From the IMG/VR virus record IMGVR_UViG_3300031760_000017: a stretch of 64,000 bases of DNA; one strand, written 5' to 3'. Source of the stretch: a virus. The notes beneath the pieces are model-generated. The model was not told the origin of the DNA and did no database searches. It saw nothing but the letters and a program-made list of their open reading frames with translations. The position numbers were made by a program, and so were the translations under genes. Shown here piece by piece: positions 37,098 to 39,383 of the stretch (position 1 is its first letter; each line of letters opens with the position of its first letter).

Positions 37098-39383
37098 ATG
37101 ACATAGAAAGAATTTATTTAGAAAGTAAAAAATCCATGTATAAATGCAACAAATATAATCGGCGGTTATCTTCCCAGCGTATTAATTGGACAAATGTGTT
37201 TATAGACTGGTTACGGAACTGGATATAATTGCGAATTATTAATGCAATGGAATAATTTGCTTGGAATGAAAACTTAGTTATTAAATGACACTTGGAAATC
37301 TAAATATTGGAATGGCAAATCCGCAACTAAAAGAACTCCAGAGTATTATGGTTACCATACAACTATTACAGATTCATTCAGGGTTTATGATAATATTTAG
37401 CAATGTGCATGTGACTATTTACAATTTATGCGCGATGCTAAATATTCTAAAAACGGAAACTATAAATATAGAGATGTTTTAACAATAAAAGATCCAACTC
37501 AACTGATTACTCAAGTATCTAAACGAGGATATGCAACAGATCCAGCTTATATTACATCTGTCATGAGTATTATTAAAAAATATAACTTAACTCAATATGA
37601 TTCAAATGGAGGGAATAAACCTATGACATTAAAATAGGCATTATCAAAACTTGGTGTTAATTTAATTAATAGAATTAGTCAGAATAGAAGCCAAGTTCCT
37701 GCTCATAATGCAAATTCACACCAATATTTTGCTGTTCACTACCTTGGTGTAAATGGTTAGAATCCAGACCTATATGGCGGCGGATATGGTGGACATTTTT
37801 ACGTAAGTAAAGATGGTAAATGCTATCAAGCCGCGGAAGTAACTGATAAACTTTGGCATGTAGGTGCTTCTTCAGGATTCTCTTATATTCATTCTTATGC
37901 AAGAAATAATAATACAATAGGAGTTGAATGCGGAACTTACACAGCTTCTGGAAGAAATAATGATAATGAGACATGGTATTTTACAGAAGCCACTCAAGTA
38001 ACTGCCGCAAAATTAGCAGCAGCTGTACTTACTGTTTATAATTTACCTATGGATCATTTATTAAGACATGGGGATATTACAACTAAAAATTGTCCATCTC
38101 CATTAAAAAGAGACCAGGGTAAAGGTAGCAACTGGACTTGGGATAAATTTAAATCAGAAGTTTCTAAATATATGGCTCAATTAGGAAATGAATCCGCTCC
38201 AACTGTTACTATTCTAAAATTAGGAAGTAATGGAAAATAGGTTAAAGAATTACAAGAAAAATTATTACTTTTAGGATTTGTAGATTGTGCTTATTACAAT
38301 AAAAATAGAAATTTCGCAGATGGTGATTTTGGATAGAATACTTTAAAATCATTAAAATATTTCCAACAAGCAAAAGGATTATAGGTTGATGGTATTTATG
38401 GACCAAAAACCGCAGAAGCATTAGATAAAGCCGTTAAAGAAGCAAAAGCTTCAAAATTTGATGTTACAGTAGATGAATTTTTAAATAATGCAAAAATTAT
38501 TGCAAAAGAAAATAAAGAAAAAGGCTTTAAATATGGTAATGCTTGTTGCTTACCTTCAGTTTATCCTTTTGAAAAAATAACATCTTGTGATAGATTTGTC
38601 GATCAAGTTTTATATAAGAGTGGATTAAAAACTGTTGGTAATCGCGGTTTTACTGATTTATAGGATTGTTTAATTAATCTTAAAGCTCAAAAAATTTATC
38701 GAGAATCTTAGTTACAAAAAGGTGATATTGTATATACAATTGGACATGTATTCATTCTTGGAAACAAAATTTCTAATACTACTTATTAGAGATACGATGC
38801 AGGTTCTGTTGAAAGAATCCAATTAACTGGACCTTATGCTAGCTATAAATCTCAGCCTTTTGTTGAAGAAATTGACCTTTTCACTTTTGCTTATAGATTA
38901 CCTTTTAAAACAAAAGAAGAAAAGAAAGAAAAGACTTCAACATTTTTAAAACTTGGTGATAATAGTGCATCAGTTAAACAAATGCAAGAAAAATTAATTA
39001 AACTTGGATATTTTGTAGGCACAGCTGGTGCGGATGGCGATTTTGGTCAAAACACATTAAAAGCATTAAAATATTTTCAATCTAATCATGGATTAACCGC
39101 AGATGGATATTATGGTCCACTTGCTAAACAAAAATTAGAAAGTATCTATAATAAAATTAAAAATTATGATACACCTACTAAACATGATAATTTAATTAAA
39201 GAGAAAATTTTTACAACAACAGACAATTTAAATTTACGTAAAGGTTCTTCAATAGCACATGAAATTATACTTTAGATTCCAAAAGGAGCAAAAGTAAAGT
39301 GGTATGGTTATTATACCGGATCTTGGTATTATGTAGTTTATAATGGAAATATTGGATATGCATCTTCTCATTATTTAAAATAA
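37098..39383 (+). CDS. multidomain endolysin, 761 aa with about 14 in-frame TAG: glucosaminidase + amidase_2 (PGRP) + 3x PG_binding_1 + NlpC/P60-like + SH3
   Basis: ATG 37098 after AAAGGAGAATAAAA. MT[TAG]KEFI[TAG]... The listed ORFs 37285, 37428, 38049 and 38982 are in one frame. Motifs: YATDPAYITSVMSII, AHNANSHQYFAVHY...GVECGT, DGDFG[TAG]NTLKSLKYFQ versus DGDFGQNTLKALKYFQ, and a C-terminal SH3-like WYGYYTGSWYYVVYNG. Confidence 0.8.

Follow-up and report, generated by a model that had tools for sequence, protein, structure and literature searches.

RESULTS

A holin-endolysin cassette carrying in-frame TAG codons

We analysed a 64,000-nucleotide stretch (the window) of IMG/VR virus record IMGVR_UViG_3300031760_000017. 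It belongs to a large (about 140 kb), AT-rich, uncultured phage from rumen or gut samples, the host of which is probably a member of the Clostridia such as Lachnospiraceae. The segment 37,098–39,383 encodes the endolysin in a holin-endolysin cassette (Table 1). The lysin frame consists of 761 sense codons followed by TAA and contains no in-frame TAA or TGA and exactly 14 in-frame TAGs, which bears out the original prediction of a 761-residue lysin gene with about 14 TAGs, two of them at codons 3 and 8. As calculated from base composition, the chance of a TAA- and TGA-free run of 761 codons is about 1e-21 at 30% GC. The strong Shine-Dalgarno sequence AAGGAG, read directly from the DNA, is kept in the related contigs L001, L004, L007, L008 and L091, and full-length lysin homologues (P0001–P0008) are 67–93% identical to the protein. 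Searched as DNA against records of cultured phages, the lysis region had no real match, and a locus search with a single protein returned only close lysin relatives.

The holin, a 90-residue Phage_holin_1 protein (85 bits), adjoins the lysin on the same strand, and the same order, with the holin directly upstream, is found in L001, L004, L007 and L008. Terminator-like hairpins followed by T-runs lie directly upstream of the holin Shine-Dalgarno sequence, in the holin-lysin gap and past the lysin stop. The sequence of the hairpin in the gap, of which the scan marked the minus-strand version of the stem, is conserved in L001, L008 and L091. No convincing sigma-70 promoter was found between the upstream hairpin and the lysin Shine-Dalgarno sequence. 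Elsewhere in the window, the flotillin/SPFH gene carries its only TAG at codon 3, as had been claimed, and the L001 flotillin opens identically (ATG ATT TAG).

Table 1. Features of the lysis cassette and related loci (window coordinates unless a contig is named)
Feature	Position	Strand	Remarks
Last four tRNA-array genes (Gln-UUG, Gly, Arg, Cys)	396..1395	+	
tRNA(CUA) in syntenic contigs	L011:4931-5004; L044:5076-5149		~3.8 kb upstream of tRNA-Gln, i.e. just outside the window
Flotillin/SPFH gene	28277..29851	+	Band_7 and Flot matches; sole TAG, codon 3, at 28283-28285
Terminator-like hairpin and T-run	36707..36748	+	directly upstream of holin Shine-Dalgarno
Holin (Phage_holin_1)	36764..37036	+	90 aa
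Single TAG of holin, codon 84	37013-37015	+	6 codons before TAA
Terminator-like hairpin and T-run	37047..37081	+	holin-lysin gap; ends 4 nt before lysin Shine-Dalgarno
Shine-Dalgarno AAGGAG	37085..37090	+	7 nt upstream of lysin ATG
Endolysin CDS	37098..39383	+	761 codons and TAA; 14 TAGs read as sense
All lysin TAG codons			codons 3, 8, 36, 60, 101, 180, 221, 381, 413, 429, 522, 538, 564, 726
TAG codon 3	37104..37106	+	Met-Thr without suppression
TAG codon 8	37119..37121	+	
TAG codon 36	37203..37205	+	position of GH73 catalytic glutamate, motif L-E-x-G-x-G
TAG codon 221	37758..37760	+	inside Amidase_2 domain
Other 10 in-frame TAGs (codons 60, 101, 180, 381, 413, 429, 522, 538, 564, 726)	37275..39275	+	
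GH73 N-acetylglucosaminidase (Pfam Glucosaminidase)	37164..37589	+	residues 23-164; E=1.1e-21
Amidase_2 (PGRP/T7-lysozyme type N-acetylmuramoyl-L-alanine amidase)	37722..38102	+	residues 209-335; E=1.2e-12
First PG_binding_1	38211..38438	+	~residues 372-447; Pfam, approximate boundaries
Putative CHAP/NlpC-P60-like papain-fold domain	38460..38915	+	residues ~455-606; invariant Cys (SCDR), His, Asp
Second PG_binding_1	38964..39125	+	residues 623-676; Pfam
SH3_3 cell-wall-binding domain	39222..39380	+	residues 709-761; E=4e-11
Terminator-like hairpin and T-run	39398..39438	+	15 nt past lysin stop

Modular architecture of the lysin

The lysin combines three putative catalytic modules with three wall-binding modules (two PG_binding_1 and one SH3_3), and the description of the protein as a 'five-activity' enzyme with three PG_binding_1 repeats has to be corrected accordingly: Pfam recognises PG_binding_1 (PF01471, 94.2 bits) in two stretches, over the first of which lie the PHROG lysin matches (residues 350–454). 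The predicted glucosaminidase, PGRP-type amidase and SH3 domains all score above their Pfam thresholds, with 78.2 bits against a cut-off of 30.2 for PF01832, 48.7 against 26 for PF01510 and 43.4 against 27 for PF08239, respectively. The GH73 domain also matches the PDB structures of FlgJ and Auto-type enzymes, and the His, His and Cys zinc ligands of the amidase (H239, H349 and C357 in the numbering of P0010) are invariant across the homologue alignment.

The NlpC/P60-like domain stands by its predicted fold and its invariant Cys, His and Asp, and not by Pfam. Residues ~455–606 reach no Pfam threshold (PF00877, PF05257); the best sequence-model score is that of NLPC_P60 (E=0.14, 12.6 bits against a cut-off of 23), obtained with the homologue P0010 only, and a PDB profile search with the domain gave only spurious matches (DNA ligase, thymidylate kinase). 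Of these comparisons, only that of folds was informative. The AF2 model of this segment (pLDDT 96) is matched by Foldseek to the CHAP domains of PlyPy, LysIME-EF1, LysGH15 and LysK and to a Trichomonas NlpC protein (E 7e-4 to 3e-2). The top PDB fold matches are CHAP/NlpC hydrolases with probabilities of 0.95–1.0 and TM scores of 0.4–0.5, and residues C46, H99 and D116 are invariant. By fold, this segment thus matches a putative CHAP/NlpC-P60-like peptidase.

TAG serves as a sense codon and not as a stop

In-frame TAGs occur in 20 of the 40 genes of the window, 71 of them in the tape-measure gene. True stops are TAA in 37 genes and TGA in three; the phage never terminates with TAG, which is instead read as sense in its tail and lysis genes and in some accessory genes. 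The base that follows in-frame TAGs (+4), which we checked as a possible read-through context, is the same as after GAA and GAG. Gyrase, ligase and helicase genes are TAG-free, and tail, lysin and homing-endonuclease genes are TAG-rich.

TAG codons are enriched at the 5' ends of genes

All seven distinct full-length recoded lysins carry at least one TAG within the first eight codons, so the early TAGs are kept across related phages. Codon 3 is TAG in five of the seven (the window, L001, L091, L004 and L007) and GAA in L008 and L095, and in the more distant homologues the residue is Glu in 84 of 111; codon 8 is TAG in six of the seven recoded relatives and CAA in L004. An internal start, which had been named as an outcome that would speak against the gate, was considered and rejected. 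After the start, no in-frame Met occurs until codon 33, which falls within the GH73 domain and still has 12 TAGs downstream; the N-terminus of the lysin is part of that domain and conserved in standard-code homologues. As had been predicted, only a dipeptide would be made without a suppressor, and the sequence supports the view that a cell lacking a UAG-decoding tRNA could not make the lysin past codon 2. In such a scheme, host RF1 would stop translation at codon 3 until the phage tRNA(CUA) becomes available.

The idea of suppressor-gated lysis is not new, having already been published (Borges et al. preprint). The proposal that recoded stops serve as a timing lock on lysis genes fits the conservation of the early TAGs and the 5' enrichment of TAG detailed below, a bias that cost minimisation would equally produce; the timing of tRNA expression and the gate as an adaptation are what we infer.

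That the early TAGs minimise cost under leaky suppression, with the lysin in no way special, is a serious alternative, if somewhat short of probable. Termination near the 5' end would waste least and leave no harmful fragments, and distal TAGs would be purged from all recoded genes. The share of TAG among Glu-type codons indeed falls from 0.62 at codons 2–5 to 0.18 beyond codon 100 (p=0.002), a smooth 5'-to-3' gradient over all TAG-bearing genes. A TAG lies within the first five codons in 5 of the 20 TAG-bearing genes, as compared to 1.6 expected (p=0.002), and the enrichment is replicated in the relatives, where 22 genes have a TAG in codons 2–10 as compared to 10 expected. Non-lytic genes (flotillin, RecJ-like and tail fibre) have TAG at codons 3–5, and the holin, with its sole TAG six codons from the end, is hardly gated. 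TAG makes up four of the lysin's first six Glu-type codons as against 33% overall, counts taken from the sequence that on their own would not be significant. Cost minimisation is nevertheless compatible with a gate, as any TAG-bearing gene would be silent without the tRNA, and TAG-free and TAG-rich genes do split by function into replication core and tail or lysis genes. This split is the pattern expected of temporal control and agrees with published surveys.

Alignment columns and catalytic sites point to glutamate

The endolysin belongs to a TAG-recoded phage lineage that, in our assessment, probably reads TAG as Glu by means of a phage tRNA(CUA). We favour Glu over Gln because of the TAG columns, the catalytic TAG at codon 36, the rates of exchange with GAA and GAG (GAR), and the Glu-like suppressor tRNA.

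When five recoded lysin genes are compared with 112 more distant homologues, the TAG columns hold 43% E, 11% D and 5% Q, as compared to 35% E and 7% Q in the GAA/GAG columns and 37% Q and 11% E in the CAA/CAG columns. At 51 TAG sites in genes of the window, E is the plurality residue 20 times, Q six times and D five times, the six Q-majority columns counting against Glu. The log-likelihood for the window is −118.0 with E and −145.2 with Q, which puts E ahead by 27 nats. We ran the same test genome by genome, grouping the relatives by identity of the DUF2828 marker protein (window 1464–3014). With a marker at least 70% identical, 9 of 10 confident calls are E, as is that for L035 at 61%; L015, a close relative, scored Q. 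Among lineage relatives E leads Q by 6–63 nats per genome (only 6.5 nats in L011), and the E-type signal exceeds Q 3–10 fold in every lineage genome. Applied as an internal control to 21 recoded relatives at greater distance, the method called Q in 19. A pooled all-versus-all tabulation had seemed contradictory since it mixed E-type and Q-type lineages, and was resolved by the per-genome treatment.

The codon-36 column is E in 111 of 111 lysin homologues, and the TAG lines up with the FlgJ (2zyc) Glu for which the variant entry 3k3t has Ala. Codon 36 is TAG in L008 and GAA in L095, the two genes being 97% identical at the nucleotide level, and both genes have TAG at a second near-invariant GH73 Glu, a column with E in all 112 homologues. 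Of 112 homologues, 87 have E and 20 have D in the codon-221 column, where L001 has TAG and L091 has GAA. The catalytic general-acid Glu of GH73 would be present only if TAG is read as Glu, as the evidence supports.

Codon exchange and the suppressor tRNA

In close pairs of genes TAG changes to GAR at 4.7% of sites, near the four-fold transversion rate (5.5%) and 20–40 times more frequently than genuine exchanges between Glu and Gln (0.12% for E to Q and 0.24% for Q to E). In the RuvC-like gene TAG exchanges with GAR at seven columns and with CAA or CAG (CAR) at none. Against Glu counts the exchange of TAG with CAR, which at 7.8% in the closest pairs is the commonest change at TAG sites, above both the exchange with GAR and D to N (5.0%); this excess reflects in part the same lysin sites counted repeatedly.

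Such near-neutral exchange with both GAR and CAR is what ambiguous decoding would produce: a non-discriminating GluRS followed by partial GatCAB conversion would give a mixture of Glu and Gln, of which only Glu would be active at catalytic sites. E-majority and Q-majority TAG columns do both occur, and Clostridia are the probable hosts; in many Firmicutes, Gln-tRNA is formed by transamidation. We nonetheless judge a mixture unlikely, since the E signal predominates in every lineage genome, a bias toward C-T transitions at positions where either residue is acceptable can account for the CAR excess, and the suppressor tRNA has features that argue against amidation.

No tRNA(CUA) was found within the window, which contains the last four genes of a tRNA array. 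The contigs L011 and L044, the DUF2828 proteins of which are 96–98% identical to that of the window, are syntenic with it and encode tRNA(CUA) just beyond the corresponding edge (Table 1); from these near-identical contigs, we infer that the window phage carries one too. In the lineage tRNA(CUA), as in the phages' own tRNA-Glu, the 1:72 pair is strong, G2·U71 forms a wobble, position 73 is A or C and the D-loop is long. In every tRNA-Gln gene, and in the CUA suppressors of the Q-type relatives, the 1:72 pair is weak or mismatched, position 73 is G and the D-loop is short. tRNAs in which the 1:72 pair is strong and the D-loop expanded are reportedly rejected by GatCAB, an observation attributed to Nakamura et al. 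The suppressor thus looks like a tRNA-Glu derivative, and charging with Glu is predicted: the tRNA(CUA) encoded just upstream of the window would be charged by host GluRS, escape GatCAB and decode UAG as Glu. On the opposite side, the CUA anticodon lacks the U34 and C36 used by E. coli GluRS. The sequence examined shows no phage gene for an aminoacyl-tRNA synthetase or a release factor. The isotype signal from BLAST is inconsistent, the best matches being tRNA-Glu for the L020-type suppressor and tRNA-Trp for the L011-type, and overall identity to the other array tRNAs is uninformative at ~0.6 for every isotype. The 'tRNA-Pyl' label given by ARAGORN reflects the anticodon only; in view of the ordinary cloverleaf and Glu-like TAG columns, pyrrolysine was rejected.

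Ordinary genetic code 15, with TAG read as Gln as in crAss-like, Lak and phAss-1 phages, is very improbable here. On this account the E-rich columns would have arisen by GAG to TAG mutation with Glu replaced by Gln, and the GH73 domain would be an inactive or binding-only remnant. Besides the frequent TAG-CAR exchange, this account can draw on the public database entries for the lysin genes, which give TAG as Q, on the literature, which for phages with a code unlike that of the host has only TAG to Gln, and on related lineages of the same broad family, which score Q. However, it places Gln at the invariant codon-36 Glu in every recoded relative, even though a 97%-identical gene has GAA there, and it is at odds with the excess of TAG-to-GAR over real Q-E exchange, the one-sided RuvC-like columns and the per-genome likelihoods. 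The E/Q dimorphism of database homologues is moreover one-way, with Q at E columns and never E at Q columns, and the suppressor lacks the weak 1:72 pair and G73 of every tRNA-Gln and Q-type suppressor examined.

Finally, while translation table 11 splits the lysin gene into 15 pieces, the notion that the frame is a pseudogene or an assembly artefact in which the TAGs are true stops has next to no probability and is already refuted by the conservation data, as 761 codons at 30% GC run without TAA or TGA, every lysin domain is intact, the TAG-bearing lysin recurs in independent assemblies from several studies and its differences among relatives are chiefly synonymous.

DISCUSSION

Consequences of a probable reading of UAG as glutamate

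If TAG is indeed Glu, full-length active lysin would need all 14 UAGs, the catalytic codon 36 included, to be read as Glu, and its yield would scale roughly with the per-codon suppression efficiency to the 14th power. A wider and more tentative proposal, which we hold to be possible but doubtful, is that a lineage of large Clostridia phages reassigned UAG to Glu by way of a CUA tRNA derived from tRNA-Glu and its sister lineages read UAG as Gln, so that the meaning of the codon changed within one family, and that UAGs at the catalytic site of the lysin and near the 5' ends of late genes form a double lock. Such a lock would act on amount, through the 14th-power dependence of yield, and on identity, as a GH73 module read through by near-cognate host tRNAs for Gln, Tyr, Lys or Trp would be catalytically dead, leaving only the phage tRNA able to arm lysis. 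The single catalytic codon makes the 'code switch as lysis lock' directly testable.

We found no report of TAG read as Glu in a phage or a bacterium in the literature searched; if correct, the assignment would therefore be a genetic-code variant new to that literature. It would also mean that related phages can give a recoded stop different amino-acid meanings, which bears on how codon reassignment evolves. Public annotation pipelines that apply table 15 to every TAG-recoded phage would then enter Gln where Glu belongs at thousands of positions, active sites included, and the errors would mislead structure prediction, lysin enzyme mining and proteomic searches. Table-15 translation with Gln at these positions is visible in the retrieved database proteins. 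An amber suppressor inserting Glu and functional in Firmicutes would also be of use in synthetic biology.

Comparison with known systems

Phages of the TAG-recoded 'genetic code 15' type that carry suppressor tRNAs include crAss-like and Lak phages, the Jade, Sapphire and Garnet clades (Borges et al.) and phAss-1 (Babkin et al.), and it has been proposed that expression of their lysis genes waits for the code switch. Like them, the phage studied here concentrates in-frame TAG in structural, lysis and homing-endonuclease genes and keeps a standard-code replication core, probably has a tRNA(CUA), as the syntenic contigs do, within a large tRNA array, and presumably infects a standard-code host. 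It differs in that the reported meaning of TAG in those phages is Gln (with proteomics in two crAss-like cases), whereas the evidence here points to Glu. The 'tRNA-TERM' of phAss-1 resembles the suppressor of one more distant, Gln-scoring relative.

Assignment of UAG to Glu has a parallel in the nuclear code of peritrich ciliates (NCBI table 30), in which TAA and TAG both encode Glu. Unlike in that eukaryotic nuclear code, TAA is here the main terminator (37 of 40 genes), and the change would be borne by a virus, probably in a host with the standard code.

As a modular enzyme joining glycosidase, amidase and peptidase modules to wall-binding domains, the lysin resembles multi-domain Gram-positive phage endolysins such as LysK and LysGH15 (CHAP, Amidase_2 and SH3b), although its CHAP-like module has diverged beyond the reach of any Pfam model. 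It is also similar to the standard-code homologues P0010 and P0023 (GH73, Amidase_2, PG_binding_1, CHAP-like and SPOR), which likewise have a holin directly upstream; it departs from these in being TAG-recoded and in C-terminal targeting by PG_binding_1 and SH3_3 instead of SPOR. In the GH73 domain, both the motif around the catalytic Glu and that of a second Glu, T-x-E-Y, align with the structures of FlgJ (2zyc), Listeria Auto (3fi7) and 7qfu; unlike in those enzymes, the catalytic Glu would here be specified by UAG and not by GAA or GAG.

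A TAG-interrupted endolysin frame

As originally predicted, the endolysin gene encodes 761 residues in a single frame; it is closed by TAA and interrupted by TAG alone. The opposite strand is full of stops, and by our own arithmetic a run of 761 codons free of TAA and TGA has a probability of ~1e-21 at 30% GC. Full-length homologues from independent assemblies (67-93% protein identity) also carry TAGs. The gene starts ATG ACA TAG, which under the standard code would yield Met-Thr, the dipeptide that had been anticipated; read from the sequence, the lysin is untranslatable past codon 2 without UAG decoding. 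Every recoded homologue has a TAG within its first eight codons: codon 3 is TAG in the window and in the related loci L001, L091, L004 and L007 and GAA in L008 and L095, and codon 8 is CAA in L004 and TAG in every other recoded lysin. Lysins without early TAGs in related phages, which would have counted against the original reading, are thus not what the relatives show. An internal start is not credible: the N-terminus is part of the GH73 domain and is kept in standard-code homologues, and the next Met is codon 33, with 12 TAGs still downstream.

The flotillin gene likewise has the expected TAG at codon 3. Before the code switch, mRNAs at both starts would be two-codon minigenes, which in E. 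coli promote peptidyl-tRNA drop-off. The flotillin/SPFH gene (Band_7 and Flot domains) adjoins a gene for a protein of 829 residues that in relatives matches the major-vault-protein shoulder and Vault_3; each carries one TAG, and the pairing is unusual in phage.

Coordinates of the endolysin gene and associated features (in the window unless a locus is named)
Feature	Position	Strand	Basis or remark
Endolysin gene	37098-39383	+	
In-frame TAGs (n=14)	codons 3, 8, 36, 60, 101, 180, 221, 381, 413, 429, 522, 538, 564, 726	+	translation
Shine-Dalgarno AAGGAG	7 nt 5' of lysin ATG	+	read from sequence
Glucosaminidase (GH73)	residues 23-164		Pfam
Amidase_2	residues 209-335		Pfam
PG_binding_1, second of two stretches	residues 623-676		Pfam
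SH3_3	residues 709-761		Pfam
ATG-NNN-TAG starts	37098-37106 (lysin), 28277-28285 (flotillin)		
Phage_holin_1 gene, 90 residues	36764-37036		directly 5' of lysin
Hairpin and T-run elements	36707-36748, 37047-37081, 39398-39438		bracket each lysis gene
Flotillin and 829-residue protein genes	28277-33263	+	
TAG-free gene set	33779-36667	+	
Tyrosine recombinase	7690-8703	-	Phage_integrase and SAM-like domain
GIY-YIG genes	42712-43452, 49147-50091, 50902-51528	+	homing-endonuclease-like
Extra PG_binding_1 gene	L007:2298-2984; L092 and L093 from 1501		between holin and lysin
CUA tRNAs of 89-92 nt	L046:1115-1206, L052:6279-6368, L059:3072-3160, L060:4585-4675, L088:6908-6998		distant relatives
UUA-anticodon tRNA	L018:6561-6635		putative ochre suppressor
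tmRNA genes	L019:8425-8702, L076:7-349		in tRNA arrays

Domain architecture of the lysin

The strong PHROGs matches of the lysin are to endolysin or amidase families only. While the original prediction listed five activities and three PG_binding_1 repeats, Pfam gives two such stretches, and the protein comprises three putative catalytic and three binding modules. The proposed NlpC/P60-like domain is favoured by predicted fold but not by Pfam, which returns nothing significant for residues ~455-606; a profile search against PDB sequences was also uninformative for this segment. Its AlphaFold model (pLDDT 96) best matches CHAP/NlpC-P60 wall hydrolases, namely PlyPy, LysIME-EF1, the LysGH15 and LysK CHAP domains and Trichomonas NlpC, and a Cys (in SCDR), a His and an Asp are invariant in an alignment of 18 homologous segments. 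The architecture is not unique, since the standard-code homologues P0010 and P0023 (48-55% identity) have the same three catalytic modules, followed by a SPOR tail.

TAG probably specifies glutamate

Sequence comparison indicates that in a defined phage lineage UAG probably encodes Glu, including at the catalytic glutamate of the lysin. When five recoded lysins were aligned with 112 more distant homologues, their TAG columns held E in 43%, D in 11% and Q in 5%, GAA/GAG columns E in 35% and Q in 7%, and CAA/CAG columns Q in 37% and E in 11%. The codon 36 column is Glu in 111/111 homologues and corresponds in alignment to the Glu in the Sphingomonas FlgJ sequence AQAALETGWG (2zyc), the GH73 general acid; PDB 3k3t is the same FlgJ with Ala at this residue. 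A second near-invariant Glu (112/112) is TAG in L008 and L095. These two lysins are 97% identical in nucleotides and differ mostly synonymously, yet at codon 36 one has TAG and the other GAA; the same TAG/GAA difference separates L001 from L091 at codon 221.

A Codetta-like test, which compared ORFs of the window and 101 related loci all-versus-all with only TAA and TGA as stops, gave E as the plurality residue at 20, Q at 6 and D at 5 of 51 window TAG sites (log-likelihood -118.0 for E versus -145.2 for Q). As an internal control, relatives whose DUF2828 marker protein is at least 70% identical to the one encoded at window 1464-3014 gave E in 9/10 confident calls, plus L035; L015 scored Q and L011 favours E weakly. 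More distant TAG-recoded relatives gave Q in 19/21 cases, and the test thus recovers the published Q assignment where applicable. At the codon level, the RuvC-like gene exchanges TAG with GAA/GAG at seven columns and with CAA/CAG at none relative to L102 and L104. Among database homologues, E columns include Q whereas Q columns never include E, a one-way dimorphism that is the signature of table 15 mistranslating TAG as Q. The database proteins P0001-P0008 and P0121-P0240, evidently table 15 predictions, show Q at the positions of TAG codons in the DNA; should TAG be Glu, they hold systematic E-to-Q errors, GH73 active site included.

In within-lineage pairs 85-99.5% identical, TAG changes to GAA/GAG at 4.7%, near the 4-fold transversion rate of 5.5%; genuine E-to-Q and Q-to-E changes amount to 0.12% and 0.24%. 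In the closest relatives, exchange of TAG with CAA/CAG (7.8%) exceeds that with GAA/GAG (4.7%) and, somewhat, the analogous D-to-N change (5.0%). Part of the excess is due to C-T transitions at tolerant sites and to repeated counting of the same lysin sites; partial transamidation of Glu-tRNA may place a minority of Gln at UAG.

tRNAs for UAG decoding

No tRNA(CUA) was found in the window, which begins inside a tRNA array. The same array in L011 and L044 (DUF2828 marker 96-98% identical) carries tRNA(CUA) ~3.8 kb upstream of tRNA-Gln, the first tRNA in the window. GlnRS identity elements include a weak 1:72 pair and G73, and GatCAB tells tRNA-Gln from tRNA-Glu by U1-A72 together with D-loop size. 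All tRNA-Gln of these phages combine G73 and a short D-loop with a weak 1:72 pair. CUA suppressors of relatives scoring as Gln share the G73 and short D-loop, with a U1·U72 mismatch; one matches the phAss-1 suppressor. The CUA tRNAs of the window lineage have C1-G72 or G1-C72, A73 or C73, and in 9/11 a G2·U71 wobble; their D-loop is longer, as in the tRNA-Glu genes of these phages. Assigning suppressor isotype by BLAST gave inconsistent results, and the sequence examined showed no gene for an aaRS or a release factor.

The CUA tRNAs of 89-92 nt in distant relatives may owe their length to an insertion or to a long variable arm. The array with the UUA-anticodon tRNA belongs to a relative scoring as Glu that also has a CUA tRNA, and two arrays encode tmRNA.

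TAG distribution and the lysis cassette

UAG marks late and accessory genes, is enriched at 5' ends, and is kept early in the lysin of all relatives. TAG-rich genes are the tail genes (71 TAGs in the 2883-residue tape-measure protein), the lysin, three GIY-YIG endonucleases and the genes for the RuvC-like nuclease, RecJ-like protein and tyrosine recombinase; gyrase, ligase, DnaB helicase, RNA ligase and RNase H are TAG-free. The 40 gene terminators in the window comprise 37 TAA, 3 TGA and no TAG, and the base following in-frame TAG is distributed as after GAA/GAG. In the 20 genes that carry TAG, its share of the Glu-type codons drops from 0.62 (codons 2-5) through 0.57 (6-10), 0.40 (11-20), 0.37 (21-50) and 0.26 (51-100) to 0.18 beyond codon 100. 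Five of these genes have TAG in the first five codons versus 1.6 expected (permutation p=0.002), and in same-lineage relatives 22 genes have it in codons 2-10 versus 10.0 expected.

The suggestion that recoded stops act as a timing lock on lysis is partly supported by this 5' enrichment and by the conserved early UAGs, although the concept is not new (Borges et al.). Cost minimisation is a viable explanation of the bias: the gradient is common to non-lytic genes, and the holin, directly 5' of the lysin in all relatives too, is barely gated, its sole TAG being codon 84 of 90. In the proposed mechanism, host GluRS would charge the phage tRNA(CUA) with Glu, the charged tRNA would escape GatCAB, and its accumulation would let UAG be read as Glu. 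Full-length yield would scale with about the 14th power of per-codon efficiency for the lysin and the 71st for the tape-measure protein, and the response would therefore be switch-like. UAG would also specify the catalytic Glu, and read-through by near-cognate host tRNAs would therefore leave the GH73 module dead.

There is no promoter space before the lysin Shine-Dalgarno. The hairpins around holin and lysin are terminator-like, each ending a few nt 5' of the next Shine-Dalgarno; they may have to be read through by antitermination for the genes to be expressed, or they may serve to stabilise the RNA. Some relatives have an extra ~225-228-residue gene between holin and lysin. The TAG-free set at 33779-36667 resembles a module for RNA or tRNA repair. 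The recombinase, between baseplate-like and CotH/tail-fibre genes, has 10 TAGs (33% of Glu-type codons); since recoded stops are avoided in the integrases of published recoded temperate phages, it may be a late-acting invertase or resolvase. The GIY-YIG genes (4-9 TAGs each), scattered among TAG-free gyrase, ligase and replication genes, are reminiscent of the recoded intron endonuclease that Borges et al. describe.

Probable hosts and comparison with known recoded systems

Among cultured phages, the marker protein is closest to those of large Bacillus siphophages (~41% identity), and genomes holding homologous lysins are Lachnospiraceae and Oscillospiraceae. Homologues also occur on contigs binned to a Bacteroidales MAG (L105) and a Methanobrevibacter MAG (L106). 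These are most likely phage contigs placed in the wrong bin, a kind of contig that could give rise to spurious TAG-to-Glu signals in genome-wide code screens. A 2026 preprint dismissed TAA/TAG-to-Glu signals in archaeal MAGs as contamination. Crisci et al. saw some TAGs align with E in Lak terminases yet read them as Q, and we found no report of TAG-to-Glu in a phage or bacterium in the literature searched. The system works like those of the TAG-recoded crAss-like, Lak, Jade, Sapphire and phAss-1 phages, but probably lacks the one defining feature of published recoded phages, TAG as Gln. To our knowledge, TAG-to-Glu is otherwise known only from the peritrich nuclear code, which differs in that TAA is reassigned as well as TAG.
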